Virus genome (UHGV): UHGV-0269933
Source: a virus
Reading direction: 5' to 3' (one strand)
DNA: 13,616 nucleotides
The notes under the pieces are model-generated. The model made no database searches, was not told the DNA's origin, and worked only from the letters and a program-made list of their open reading frames with translations. The stretch's first letter is position 1, and each line of letters opens with the position of its first letter. A program made the translations under genes and the position numbers. Below are positions 2,162 through 11,276 of this stretch, in pieces.

Positions 2162-2268
2162 CGCTCAAACTTCAATCGGCCGAGTTTTCGAGGCGTTAAA
2201 GAGTAGATATGGGAATATCACATATGTAAAAACCAGCCGCGCTCAAACTTCAATCGGCCGAGTTTTCG
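2162..2268. repeat. Pair of perfect 29-bp direct repeats (2162..2190, 2240..2268) with embedded 9-bp-stem hairpin in second copy
   Basis: cgctcaaacttcaatcggccgagttttcg occurs twice, 78 bp apart. Second copy extends into aatcggccg-agtttt-cggccgatt inverted repeat. Confidence 0.6.
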
Positions 2269-2307
2269 GCCGATTACCAGGTCCGCCGGGTCATTCGGGC
2301 CTGTCGG

Positions 2308-3052: not shown

Positions 3053-4093
3053 TTAGGCCACGCGAACGGTGACAAAACGGTTGATACGGGCCGGGATAGG
3101 CTGCGGTGCGGAGTGGGTCTGAACGTACTCAATAGCTGGGTCGCCAGGAACAATGTAGTTCTTTGGCGCCAGCTCAGCTTTGGTAATACCCATACGGATG
3201 AGCTCTGGATCCTGAATTCCGCCGTAGGCCACAATGCCCTGCAGGGCGGTGTTTCCCAGCACCATCAAATCAGGATCGAGGAAGTGCTTTTCGGTGCCGT
3301 CTTCGTCGGTATAGCGACCGCTATAAACCACAATAGCCACATCGCCCATATAGCCTTTAAAGCTCACTGAATCGCCCAGGTCTTTAAGTGCTGTTTCAAG
3401 CTGTGCGTTGGAGCCGCGGCGCGTGTCGAGTACATCTTTAATCGCTTTGAAAGAACGATATTTTTTCCAGACGTTCCCGCCCATAATGATGATATTGGTT
3501 ACGCCTTCACTCAGCTCTGAATAGGTTTCAATATCGTCATTTGGATCAAACGTCGTTTTATCTTTACCTGACCAGGCAGCGCCACCAGCCTGAGTGATTA
3601 TATTCTGGGATTTGATATTCCAGTCCAGCTCATAACGCTCGATCCCTTCCCCCTCAATAATATTTTTCCCGGTAGTTACAGCCTGAACAGCCAGCCATTC
3701 AATACGCGCACGAATAGCAATAGACTGTTTGAGGATTGACTGTTTTACCTTGATATTGCGGGTATCAAGCGTGCTGTATTGATCAGGAGTAACACCAGCA
3801 GGACGAACAGCCAGTTTGTTAGGGTCAATGTTGCTCTTTGGTTTCATGTAGCCAGGACGGATAGACTTGGACTCATATCCCTCATCACGCGCCACCTTAC
3901 TACCCACCATAGGCGAACAGAACGCCGCGATTGGAATATTTGGGTCGTCGATAGTGTCCAGGATGATATCGCGCGTTTCAAAAGTAACTGCGCGGGTAAA
4001 GAATAAATCAGTGAACAGGGTTTTTAGTTGCTTCTGAATATCCTCAGCGCTAACAACCCGAACCAGCGCCGCAGGTGAATATAAATCTGGCAT
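3053..4093 (-). CDS. Major capsid protein, lambda gpE-like
   Basis: 346 aa, full-length collinear similarity to lambda gpE (341 aa): PGYMKPK..., ITQAGGAAWSGKDKTTFDPNDDIETY..., FRSFKAIKDVLDTRRGSNAQLETALKDLG...YMGDVAIVVYSG...MVLGNT...YGGIQD...GDPA... SD GAGG upstream of ATG. Confidence 0.9.
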   Translation of the reverse strand: MPDLYSPAALVRVVSAEDIQKQLKTLFTDLFFTRAVTFETRDIILDTIDDPNIPIAAFCSPMVGSKVARDEGYESKSIRPGYMKPKSNIDPNKLAVRPAGVTPDQYSTLDTRNIKVKQSILKQSIAIRARIEWLAVQAVTTGKNIIEGEGIERYELDWNIKSQNIITQAGGAAWSGKDKTTFDPNDDIETYSELSEGVTNIIIMGGNVWKKYRSFKAIKDVLDTRRGSNAQLETALKDLGDSVSFKGYMGDVAIVVYSGRYTDEDGTEKHFLDPDLMVLGNTALQGIVAYGGIQDPELIRMGITKAELAPKNYIVPGDPAIEYVQTHSAPQPIPARINRFVTVRVA

Positions 4094-4301
4094 ATATTAC
4101 CTCAGTAAAATAAATAGAGCGTTCATCACAAAAATAATGTTAACACTGACAAACACAGAATGATTGAATGCAATGATGTGCAATAGAGTGCAATAATGTA
4201 TAAAGTTAATTCACGGTGATATGGCCCGCTAAATATCTGTTAATGTCCTCACTGTTATTTCCTCCAAATAACATCGTTCGTTAAAAATCCATGTTTTCCC
4301 A

Positions 4302-4331
4302 AGCGGGTCTGGTTGCAGCCCGCTTTTTTTT
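4302..4331 (+). terminator. Rho-independent terminator on + strand (hairpin + T8) with no annotated + strand gene upstream
   Basis: agcgggtctggttgcagcccgct stem-loop followed by tttttttt. Lies in the leader region upstream of the capsid gene. Confidence 0.45.
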
Positions 4332-4366
4332 CGTCTTTCGCAAAATTATGGATCGGCAAAATGAGT

Positions 4367-4646
4367 GGTGAAAATCACCCTACCCACAGCTTTAAAATTA
4401 AAAAATATCCTTTTAAGTGTTCACCCGTTCACCTTTGCGAATTTCTTAATTAAATTCATGTAGTTATAGGGTGAATACTACTCTTTCAGGTATTCACTAG
4501 TGTTCACCCTACCCTTCACCCTTTAGGGCAAAAAACAATCAAAAGGTGAACAGGTGAATACTTGGTGAATACTTAATAAATAAGTGTCCACCCCTTAACA
4601 CTCTGTTATTAATAGAATTTTAAACAGGGTGAATACTGGTGAACAC
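4367..4646. repeat. Iteron cluster of P4 ori/crr type (TGTTCACC / GTATTCACC), ~12 copies in both orientations
   Basis: TGTTCACC at 4418, 4426, 4501; GGTGAACA/GGTGAATAC at 4470, 4545, 4553, 4564, 4628, 4638; variants at 4490, 4513, 4585; GGTGAAAATCACC palindrome at 4367. Matches the P4 type I iteron motif bound by alpha (recalled). Confidence 0.7.
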
Positions 4647-4659
4647 TTTATCTATAACT

Positions 4660-5361
4660 TTACTCTACCCCTTCATTCTCAGTAGTGATTGCACATGATG
4701 GCATCCAGTCGCCAGAATCATCATGCAGGGTTACGTTAGAGCGTATGCCATGTTTGGTTTTCCGCTTCTGGTATTCCTTCCCATACTCAACCATTGCGCC
4801 AGGCATATCTGTACCGAACCGCATCAGTGAGACAGGCTTACTCAGGCCATTGGCTCTCATGTATGCCAGATAGGCGTGATACAGGTACTTGCGCGGGCTG
4901 AATGGCACTATCTCGGCATTACCGATAAACATCCCGTCACACACTACCGACGCCATCAGGTAGCCGCAGAAGTCCACCAGCGAATCACCTTCACGCTTGA
5001 TCGCCAGAGCCTCCTCTGATTTCTGCTGCTCATACAATAACCGTCTGGCTTCGTCCTGGTCTGCAAAACGTGTAAGCAGATGGCGGATAACTACAGCCAG
5101 TTCCCCTTCTATTTTCTCTGCCAGCATCGAGTCTCGCTCGTTTTCTGGTACAACCTCCGAGAAATTGAAAATAACCCGGCGCCGCGAAATCCCCCCGCTA
5201 CGGTCGCTGAATGTCATAGCATTGTTGTTTACCGCCAGCACCACCGCCGGAATACGGGTTGAATATGGTGCTTTATGTTTAGGATCGATAGACACCTTGT
5301 CACCACCAGTTATGGCCTTAATACCTGCACCATCGCCAGCGTACCGGGTCATATCAGGCAT
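4660..5361 (-). CDS. P4 alpha-type primase/helicase C-terminal (iteron-binding) domain homolog, stand-alone/truncated
   Basis: 233 aa beginning near the SF3-helicase arginine-finger region (AVVLAVNNNAMTFSDRSGGISRRRVIFNF). No Walker A/B or primase domain. Located immediately upstream of the TGTTCACC iterons, as the alpha 3' end is in P4. Confidence 0.55.
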   Translation of the reverse strand: MPDMTRYAGDGAGIKAITGGDKVSIDPKHKAPYSTRIPAVVLAVNNNAMTFSDRSGGISRRRVIFNFSEVVPENERDSMLAEKIEGELAVVIRHLLTRFADQDEARRLLYEQQKSEEALAIKREGDSLVDFCGYLMASVVCDGMFIGNAEIVPFSPRKYLYHAYLAYMRANGLSKPVSLMRFGTDMPGAMVEYGKEYQKRKTKHGIRSNVTLHDDSGDWMPSCAITTENEGVE

Positions 5362-5427
5362 AATGATCGTAATGTTCCTTTATTTCATGAATCGTAATAG
5401 GCATAAATTCTCCTTGTTTGTCTAACC

Positions 5428-5620
5428 TGCCGCATTTAGTGCCGCGTTTAGCAATGCCGCACTTAGCGCCGCACCAGTTTTCTCAAAAAATTACGCAAAC
5501 CCAGTAATGACGTGGGTTTCAGTGAAATGCCGCACTTAGCGCGTGTATACAGGGACTAAGTGCGGCATTTGGTCATAAAACATACTAAATGCCGCACATG
5601 CCGCACTTACCGCCGCATTT
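5428..5620. repeat. Cluster of >=5 copies of ATGCCGCACTTAGCGC-like repeats including a 15-bp perfect inverted repeat
   Basis: Copies at ~5428, 5455, 5527, 5554 (inverted), 5588-5620. AAATGCCGCACTTAG-N16-CTAAGTGCGGCATTT at 5526..5571. Hairpin aaaccca/tgggttt at 5497..5519. Confidence 0.6.
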
Positions 5621-6983
5621 ACTCGACTGTTACCGGGTAAAGGTTCTCACCCTCGATGCGAATAATTTGCTCACTCTCCAGCTTGTCCAGCCAGCGCGGG
5701 AATGACTTTCTCACTTTGTCTGAGCCCAGCGTTGCACGCAGATCGTCTTTAATGACGGAGATAGTGCATGGCTCCCCCTTAGCTGTTCGGCTGCGAACTG
5801 CCTGCCATAGTGCATGATGGTTATCGCTAAGACGGGATACATGGGCCAGTTCAGGCTCAACCTCTTTAGCCTCTCTCGGCTGATCGTGCACAACCAGAGA
5901 GCAAACAAGCTCGCCATCTTCATCGGTGTAAAGCTCTGCCGTTCTCAGGTCATACGCTTTACGCTCTGGCTCCTCCGCGTCTTTCATCTTGGTACAGGTC
6001 AGAATAAGCGCTTTTCCATCCCCTTCACGCTTAACGTTAAATTCAGTATCAAGCGCAGCGCGGAAAGCACTGGAACCGCGAGCGCCTTTCCCTTCATCTT
6101 TGCCGGAGTGGTGAACTACCAGCACCGTTGCACCCGTTTTCTGTTTGATAACGTCACACCCTTCAATAAATGCCCCCATATCACGAGCATCGTTCTCGTC
6201 GTTACCGCCAAAACAACGGGCCAGCGTATCGATCACCACCATGCGAACCGGCACACCACATTCGGCTTCAATCTGCCTGGCAGCCAGAAGAACTTCTGTA
6301 ACCTCTGACTCACGCACCGGGAACACCGGACGATTGACCAGCCAGAGGTTGTCTGCCTGTATGCCATGCACCTGTTCCCATGCCCGTATACGCCGGGGAA
6401 CACCTACACCACCCTCGCCAACCACATACAGCACCGCGCCGGGAGTGACCTTCTTCCCCGCCCATGGCAGACCAGCAGCGATATGACAGGCCCACGACAC
6501 GGCAAGAAAACTCTTATACGAACCGCTGGGGCCGTAAATGCTGCACAGTGATTGCGCTGGCAGAAAGTGTTTAAGGATATAGTCCTGACGGATATCAAAG
6601 CCCTCAGAACCGCGAGAGAGAGGCAGCTTTGTCCTGAACTTTGCACCAGCATCAGGGAATACGCGGTGAATGCGCTGCACGTCAGACAGCATGGCATTCA
6701 TTTCCCCTTCGCCTATCTCTTCCACCAGCACAGAACGCCGCGCGGTAATCATATGTTTGCGGTCGGTATCGAGATACCCGGCATCACAAAGCTCCTCATA
6801 CGGCATTGCTGCTATCTGGTTGAGGCGAGCCACCAGCTTTCCGTAACGGGTAGTGGGGTCCTTATGCTGGTGGAGAGCTTTATCCAAATCGCTGCGACTG
6901 TACTGCTTGCCATGCGCCCACAGATACGAACAGGTGAACAAGGCATCCGATACGGTTTCTACAGCTGTCAGTTGTACCGTCAT
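5619..6983 (-). CDS. RepA-like replicative helicase / AAA_25 (RecA-fold) ATPase with N- and C-terminal accessory domains
   Basis: 454 aa; Walker A GPSGSYKS, Walker B-like VVIDTLARCF, HHSGKDEGKGARGSSA motif typical of RSF1010 RepA/DnaB-like helicases. ATGA overlap with upstream gene. Confidence 0.75.
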   Translation of the reverse strand: MTVQLTAVETVSDALFTCSYLWAHGKQYSRSDLDKALHQHKDPTTRYGKLVARLNQIAAMPYEELCDAGYLDTDRKHMITARRSVLVEEIGEGEMNAMLSDVQRIHRVFPDAGAKFRTKLPLSRGSEGFDIRQDYILKHFLPAQSLCSIYGPSGSYKSFLAVSWACHIAAGLPWAGKKVTPGAVLYVVGEGGVGVPRRIRAWEQVHGIQADNLWLVNRPVFPVRESEVTEVLLAARQIEAECGVPVRMVVIDTLARCFGGNDENDARDMGAFIEGCDVIKQKTGATVLVVHHSGKDEGKGARGSSAFRAALDTEFNVKREGDGKALILTCTKMKDAEEPERKAYDLRTAELYTDEDGELVCSLVVHDQPREAKEVEPELAHVSRLSDNHHALWQAVRSRTAKGEPCTISVIKDDLRATLGSDKVRKSFPRWLDKLESEQIIRIEGENLYPVTVE

Positions 6984-11213: not shown

Positions 11214-11238
11214 TTCAGGTTAGCTAAATGCTTGATTA

Positions 11239-11276
11239 AAAAGGCGCTACTCGGCATGGGGAAGCGCCTTTTTTAT
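11239..11276 (+). terminator. attR-type direct repeat, the fis Rho-independent terminator
   Basis: Identical to 26..63. GC-rich hairpin followed by a T6 run, upstream of yhdJ. Confidence 0.8.

Follow-up and report, generated by a model that had tools for sequence, protein, structure and literature searches.

We analysed a stretch of viral DNA of 13,616 nucleotides (UHGV virus genome UHGV-0269933; hereafter the window), in which a 123-bp patch at 2159-2281 carries two perfect 29-bp direct repeats and is built throughout from pieces of phage genes. Most likely the patch is a phage-DNA scar at the cosQ hairpin of a PICI-like satellite with a lambda-type cos site, and a look-alike of a CRISPR array with a single spacer. 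In our judgement the repeats are quite probably a by-product of illegitimate recombination, namely the microhomology-mediated capture of phage DNA at a hairpin, and not a working element; the capture itself is a fresh case of a type of event that is already known.

The 29-mer (CGCTCAAACTTCAATCGGCCGAGTTTTCG) occurs in two identical copies on the plus strand, at 2162-2190 and 2240-2268, which lie 78 nt apart from start to start with 49 nt (2191-2239) between them, and the recurrence of a perfect 29-mer inside 78 bp of a 13.6-kb window is well beyond chance. Our repeat search agrees to the base with the first-pass annotation of this DNA, which had also correctly located the pair between a gene for an AlpA-like protein (2308-2691 or 2694) and the scar of an IS66 element (remnants at 1269-1658). 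The same annotation described a 9-bp stem following the second copy; the inverted repeat is real, and its stem folds as 10 bp (AATCGGCCGA and TCGGCCGATT around the loop GTTT, at 2252-2275 on the plus strand, into which copy 2 runs) when the DNA of the donor gene is folded (L003, 6725-6790). Translation of the donor ORF identifies this hairpin as coding sequence of a phage Rha gene, with the codons ..QSAEFSADY... In the window the repeats are non-coding, as had been proposed: the plus-strand ORF that runs across them (2136-2366) has no match to a Pfam family, and an exact lookup of its product returned no called gene. Nor are they copies of a widespread intergenic element, a possibility that the annotation had raised against its own reading, since the 29-mer has no match in 185,579 species-representative genomes; none of 5,426 complete E. 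coli genomes gave a match to an 81-nt query across its second copy.

Exact matches to two phage genes cover the patch completely, in the order Rha (32 nt), KilA-N (57 nt) and Rha (42 nt), with both kinds of fragment in sense on the plus strand and antisense to the minus-strand operon of the island. The first Rha fragment (2159-2190, AAT plus the 29-mer) equals positions 6734-6765, and the second (2240-2281, the 29-mer plus GCCGATTACCAGG) positions 6737-6778, of a phage locus (L003) whose ORF at 6613-7317 matches Phage_pRha (PF09669, E 6.5e-14) and holds the only match of the 29-mer in IMG/VR; the N-terminal part of this donor allele matches no record of the phage collection. The KilA-N fragment (2188-2244, 57 nt) is 100% identical to positions 6001-6057 of an E. 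coli prophage (L001), within a gene with a KilA-N domain (PF04383), and likewise 100% identical to HK97 gp73 and to the KilA-N genes of HK022, HK75, the mEp phages and E. coli prophages. Of these 57 nt, 49 (2191-2239) are unique to the piece, and the others belong to the repeats, 3 nt to the end of copy 1 and 5 nt to the start of copy 2, such that neighbouring pieces overlap by TCG at the left joint and by CGCTC at the right one. The 29-mer is the stretch of Rha that flanks the KilA-N piece on either side. Every match to an extant phage sequence is perfect and the two copies of the repeat are identical, and the event is therefore recent.

A single phage as the donor of both pieces was considered and set aside: the Rha donor is not among the 17 IMG/VR contigs that contain the 49-mer of KilA-N, and none of these 17 has the 29-mer. 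We also rejected the idea that the fragments stem from homologous sites of two related proteins (E-S-L-K versus E-A-L-K), BLASTP finding no alignable similarity between the donor proteins, and we take the resemblance as a coincidence. The left border of the KilA-N piece in the prophage (5990-6010; GTTACA followed by TCGAGGCG) is alike in 10 of 14 positions to the nick region of lambda cosN (GTTACG followed by GGGCGGCG), a likeness seen by eye after many comparisons and probably coincidental. The borders of the Rha piece show nothing that resembles the cosN nick region; its ends look like restriction sites (GAATC, CCAGG), again as noted by eye, and any short end fits some site.

Most relatives lack the patch. 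When six of them were compared with the window by blastn, the alignments broke exactly at 2282/2158 in every case, and the empty site, in which GGACCCGCGCCGA is joined directly to TCCGCCGGGTC, is found in an island of Kluyvera georgiana (L005), whose AlpA-like protein is 91% identical to that of the window, as well as in two loci, L024 and L104, with 99.4% identity to the window over the flanks. Close relatives with an intact empty site are these last two and 15 loci with an identical decoration or AlpA-like protein. A conserved motif lies 25-33 nt past the stop codon in about 120 of 127 further relatives from IMG/VR and metagenomes, and at 155 nt in the window only. Together with 15 of the 19 readable loci, i.e. 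those listed from exact lookups of the decoration and AlpA-like proteins, this gives about 135 loci without an insert at the hairpin. The other four of the 19, from three assemblies (GCA_012955545.1, GCA_016504495.1 and GCA_003328195.1), carry a 45-bp insert at the same position as the 123-bp one, consisting of the Rha piece alone (AATCGCTC...CCAGG) and thus containing one 29-mer. There are hence three natural alleles: empty, 45-bp and 123-bp.

The 123-bp allele is not an artefact of assembly. The exact capsid protein of the window is on record in 12 contigs, and among the six that were listed, four contain the full 123-bp insert, base for base the same in four independent assemblies, and the other two end within the insert, past the joint between Rha and KilA-N. 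The allele is present in at least six independent samples and is therefore real and inherited. The three alleles form a natural series for the templated capture of phage DNA at a hairpin beside cos; they record physical contact between a PICI-like satellite and phages bearing Rha-type and HK97-type KilA-N genes, and they could be used to study template switching provoked by hairpins in the replication of a satellite or its helper.

The place of the insertion is a hairpin in its own right. Folding of the empty site (L005, 3376-3440) gives a stem with a 6-nt loop, and the insert sits in the middle of this loop, between GGA and TCG; in the window the minus-strand hairpin is thereby split over 2147-2292, with its 5' arm at 2292-2285, the halves of the loop at 2284-2282 and 2158-2156, and its 3' arm at 2155-2147, which contains and overlaps cosQ. 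The conserved sequence past the insertion can be aligned to phage lambda (NC_001416) across its joined ends, and on this basis we place a putative complete lambda-type cos site on the minus strand at 1950-2151, with cosQ (GGGTCCT) at 2145-2151, the 12-nt cohesive-end sequence of cosN (GGGCGGCGACCT) at 2110-2121, and a cosB-like region at 1950-2109, in which a repeat search and the lambda alignment recognise R-like sequences (AGAAAGGAAA and TTTCCTTTCT; R-like repeats at about 1950-2105) and an inverted repeat, I2 (1957-2013), that corresponds to lambda R2/R1. The names, definitions and roles of cosQ, cosN and cosB follow PMC9026076 and PMC6739421. The spacing of cosQ and cosN is 23 nt, as in lambda. 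The insert starts 7 nt upstream of cosQ and 37 nt from the site at which terminase nicks. The first-pass annotation had looked for a packaging site and offered the repeats as a possible one; a lambda-type cos indeed begins 7 nt from the insert, though the repeats lie outside it.

These features agree with the lambda-type cos sites described for PICIs of Gram-negative hosts (Fillol-Salom et al. 2019, PMC6739421; Feiss et al. 2022, PMC9026076), both in cosQ, the 23-nt spacing and cosN, and in the islands that carry them, which likewise have int, alpA, primase/helicase and capsid genes and are integrated next to fis. Unlike in the published Rpp islands, cosB here still has lambda-like R sequences and the gene for the helix-turn-helix (HTH) protein lies on the cosQ side, not downstream of cosB; the 29-mers, in contrast to these elements, are not part of cos. 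The potential to form the hairpin is kept in 14 diverse relatives, and covariation in it is weak because cosQ fixes one of its arms. In one relative (L059, compared with L040) cosQ has become GGGGCCT and the opposite arm has gone from GGGCCC to GGTCCC, so that pairing is kept (G-U to U-G), which is possibly compensatory and suggests selection on the hairpin; another relative (L115) has the same change in cosQ with the opposite arm unchanged. Phage lambda has no such hairpin beside cosQ in the alignment with its joined ends. In two metagenomic relatives (L129 and L130, 1889-2284) the interval from the AlpA-like gene to cosQ contains an extra ORF of 131 aa and lacks a hairpin.

As an explanation for the composition and position of the patch, we propose that, within a single lineage, the apex of the hairpin upstream of the satellite's cosQ took up short pieces of phage DNA, either by copying or by ligation. 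A growing strand would have stalled immediately after the loop of the strong Rha hairpin, re-primed through TCG on single-stranded KilA-N DNA of a phage, copied about 50 nt of it, and then re-primed through CGCTC on Rha at a point 29 nt behind that of its departure, which would generate the 29-nt duplication. In the sequence, the joint from Rha to KilA-N lies 0-3 nt past the loop of the 10-bp hairpin, and the two inner junctions have microhomologies of 3 and 5 nt; by our own arithmetic, a match of 8 nt of flank by chance has a probability of about 4^-8 = 1.5e-5. As in templated insertions, a template exists for every segment (all 123 bp) and the intact empty site is preserved in close relatives. 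The pattern resembles microhomology-mediated break-induced replication and fork stalling and template switching (MMBIR/FoSTeS), in which strands prime by microhomology on nearby single strands in serial switches, return behind the point of departure gives a duplication, and hairpins serve as sources of single strands (Hastings et al. 2009, PMC2621351). Shared with that model are the short templated segments of unlinked DNA, joints with 3-5 nt of microhomology, several switches per product, the duplication on the strand's return and the association with a hairpin; the differences lie in the scale, which is 123 bp here and not kilobases, in the templates, which are phage DNA and not the same chromosome, and in the outer junctions, which here have no microhomology.

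A smaller precedent comes from quasipalindromes. In E. coli, work of the Lovett laboratory reportedly describes mutagenesis by template switching in which the opposite arm of the same hairpin is copied and a few bases are changed. There, too, a hairpin makes the polymerase leave its template and copy elsewhere, whereas in the present case the template is foreign (phage DNA) and about 50 nt have been copied.

The outer junctions with the island backbone show neither microhomology nor a target duplication, and at this step the blunt end joining of a fragment therefore fits better than template switching. One could extend this to the event as a whole: a double-strand break at the hairpin apex, made for instance by SbcCD or by terminase acting beside cos, would be repaired with short double-stranded pieces of degraded phage DNA that had annealed by microhomology and were then joined. 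We regard this as an unlikely origin of the entire patch, even though its blunt outer junctions, a break point at the centre of the hairpin loop only 37 nt from the terminase nicking site, and piece sizes of 45 and 49-57 nt that suit products of nuclease degradation all speak for it. It needs two copies of Rha with nearly the same left end in one repair, which is less economical than copying one template again, and E. coli and its relatives are not known to have classical NHEJ. End joining predicts a sequence identical to that from template switching, such that the present data do not separate the two. By either route the capture would require phage DNA in the same cell, as is normal for a helper-dependent satellite, and we infer that it took place in a phage-infected cell.

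The layout of the patch, a repeat, a spacer and a repeat, with the spacer identical to a phage gene, invites comparison with CRISPR. An array in the usual sense can be rejected, in agreement with the first-pass annotation, which saw no typical CRISPR here: the patch has a single spacer of 49 nt (57 with the shared bases), microhomology at the junctions, no AAG or CC PAM, no cas gene in the window and no array repeat. Searches found no Cas domain in the 20 largest ORFs of the window and no significant match to any RNA family in Rfam, its CRISPR-DR families included, and in the genomes and viral contigs searched the 29-mer occurs in no array, its only match in IMG/VR lying within a coding gene of the Rha family. 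Virus-borne and other mobile mini-CRISPR arrays, and solitary repeat units, are reportedly the subject of work by Medvedeva et al. (2019) and Faure et al. (2019). The repeats of such mini-arrays match those of host CRISPRs and can hence be used by the Cas proteins of the host. They resemble the patch in that two repeats on a mobile element enclose a single spacer directed at a competing virus, and differ in that the 29-mer is nowhere a CRISPR repeat in the databases searched.

A more specific proposal is that Cas1-Cas2 of the host inserted the 49-nt phage piece into an existing 45-bp Rha fragment and duplicated a 29-bp target. The repeats of type I-E and I-F systems in enterobacteria are close to 29 bp in length, and their ruler in Enterobacteriaceae sets spacers of 32-33 nt. 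A 29-bp duplication would thus suit such an integration, a single-repeat allele exists that could be its precursor, and one shared SNP sets the window beside a 45-bp form; the spacer, at 49-57 nt, does not suit the ruler. The microhomologies of 3 and 5 nt at the ends of the spacer are nothing that an integrase gives a reason for, neither strand has an AAG or CC PAM beside the protospacer, the repeat is itself phage coding sequence and present as one unit only, and the step from 45 to 123 bp is only one of two possible orders. Off-target integration by overproduced E. coli Cas1-Cas2, as described in PMC7054753 (citing Nivala, Shipman and Church 2018), likewise places foreign DNA between duplicates of a target of about 28-29 bp at a site that is not a CRISPR; its spacers are 33 nt, as against 49-57 nt in the patch, and the patch further differs in its border microhomology, in having no PAM and no cas gene in the window, and in that the duplicated target is captured phage DNA. 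On balance we give an origin through Cas1-Cas2 very little credence. The patch indicates that a repeat-spacer-repeat unit with a spacer that matches a phage perfectly can arise without CRISPR machinery, and anyone scanning mobile elements for orphan or mini-arrays should ask whether the repeat is itself coding DNA that has been captured, and look for microhomology at the junctions.

The order in which the alleles arose bears on these readings. Upstream SNPs group the window and the 45-bp forms with three empty loci in one tight clade, with 2-4 differences in 1.8 kb, and the sole informative SNP among them is a derived T at 3782 that is common to the window and one 45-bp form (L165). Parsimony on this one SNP suggests the order from empty to 45 to 123 bp. 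Considerations of rate favour the reverse step, from 123 to 45 bp by slippage deletion, because slippage between 29-bp repeats 78 bp apart is common and a repeated capture at one spot is rare. Haplotypes downstream of cosN reassort freely, leaving the two sides of cos unlinked, and the downstream side is therefore uninformative on the order. Over 420 nt downstream of the hairpin the window is identical to some empty-site islands, and its closest upstream relatives differ from it there. Such unlinked flanks are consistent with recombination, or with a re-joining of different satellite genomes at cos. The 45-bp allele weakens a single event as the only route to the 123-bp insert. If it is ancestral, two rare captures fell within the same 50 bp in one small clade, which might suggest a hot spot, or a directed process, over a random accident. 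We considered the extreme form of that idea, in which the cosQ hairpin is a Cas-independent recorder of pieces of about 45-50 nt from phage antirepressor-type genes, duplicating the flank each time and yielding a CRISPR-like unit with a minus-strand transcript antisense to helper genes, and in which the alleles are its successive steps; the chance that this holds seems to us slender indeed.

Could the insert have a function? Both donors are of the antirepressor class and both fragments are antisense to the operon, which counts against a scar and could point to a function. In such a scheme, RNA reading through from the AlpA-like gene would be antisense to KilA-N (49-57 nt) and to Rha mRNA (45 nt, twice), and would damp antirepressor-type genes of a helper or competitor. 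The donors do belong to the Bro/KilA-N/Rha network of phage regulators (10.1101/2022.07.18.500453), the insert follows the stop codon and precedes the 3' arm of a possible operon terminator hairpin, so that it would be transcribed if that reading of the hairpin is right, and the allele persists in at least six samples. Conservation is confined, however, to one near-clonal lineage, with about 135 relatives lacking the insert; a shared orientation is expected by chance in 1 of 4 cases; the Rha donor allele is very rare and leaves little to target; and neither a promoter nor a processing signal was found, a scan of 1850-2800 for promoters and terminators having returned nothing relevant. We hold a regulatory role of this kind to be very unlikely.

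Far fainter still is the case for the insert as part of the packaging signal or as an operator array for the AlpA-like protein, the latter having been suggested by the first-pass annotation as a binding array. The insert directly adjoins both cosQ and the AlpA-like gene; its sequence is nonetheless foreign coding DNA, relatives with an identical AlpA-like protein and the same cosQ-cosN lack it, and lambda and the published PICI cos sites have no such element (PMC9026076). Most of the sampled islands that encode the identical 127-aa protein are without the 29-mer (14 of 19 readable loci). Islands with the identical AlpA-like protein are mostly insert-free, and the insert is therefore not needed; we infer that it has no function. 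Among the three options that the annotation had put forward, the recombination scar is the one that the evidence supports.

The island that carries the patch is 11 kb long and flanked by direct repeats of 55 nt (9-63 and 11222-11276, 91% identical), which are probably its attL and attR and which contain a terminator-like hairpin. By Pfam, its minus-strand genes encode an integrase, a DUF6387 protein, AlpA, a RepA-type helicase, a D5-type protein, a major capsid protein of the lambda E type, a D-type decoration protein and the second AlpA-like HTH protein (PF05930). The latter is encoded by the last gene ahead of cos (2308-2694), for which gene callers place the start at 2691 (127 aa), and that exact product is found in 279 blocks of the collection, with no record for exact lookups from the starts at 2697, 2694 and 2742. 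Beyond the operon lie a truncated lambda gpI-like tail gene, IS66 transposase remnants (1269-1658) and an Abi_C gene; yhdJ and acrS are on the chromosomal flank, and in relatives fis lies just outside the other end of the island. The gpI-like gene, downstream of cos on the minus strand (1696-1935), is cut to 79 aa by the IS66 remnants; it is full in relatives, at about 200 aa, and the cut arrangement is identical in SRR31598837 (L173). The island has int, alpA, primase/helicase and cos, all oriented the same way, as well as att-like repeats and a capsid gene. It appears to be a PICI-like satellite of the lambda-cos type, and its layout fits that of Gram-negative PICIs, a family of 10-20 kb described in 10.1101/2022.07.18.500453.

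Phages of the HK97 type, as donors of the KilA-N piece, were considered as helpers and rejected: with up to one mismatch allowed, no lambda cosN was seen at the loci that have the KilA-N 49-mer. In the E. coli prophage L001, however, this KilA-N gene occurs alongside a Nu1-type terminase and a lambda-like variant of cos. Between the genes for the D5-type protein and the RepA-type helicase, a cluster at 5425-5617 of direct and inverted copies of ATGCCGCACTTAGCGC (D1 and D2; I4, I23 and I24) resembles an iteron-type origin from which the island would replicate. Five islands with an AlpA-like protein identical to that of the window (L156, L159, L167, L169 and L171, at about 3150-4850) have genes for a Nu1-type small terminase, minor tail protein Z and a gpI-like protein directly after cos, and the satellite family therefore varies in how much of the helper late region it carries. 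One related island (L002; NZ_CP019273, 3350-12138) lies inside the major capsid gene of a lambdoid prophage, an arrangement known as a helper-embedded satellite (10.1101/2022.07.18.500453).
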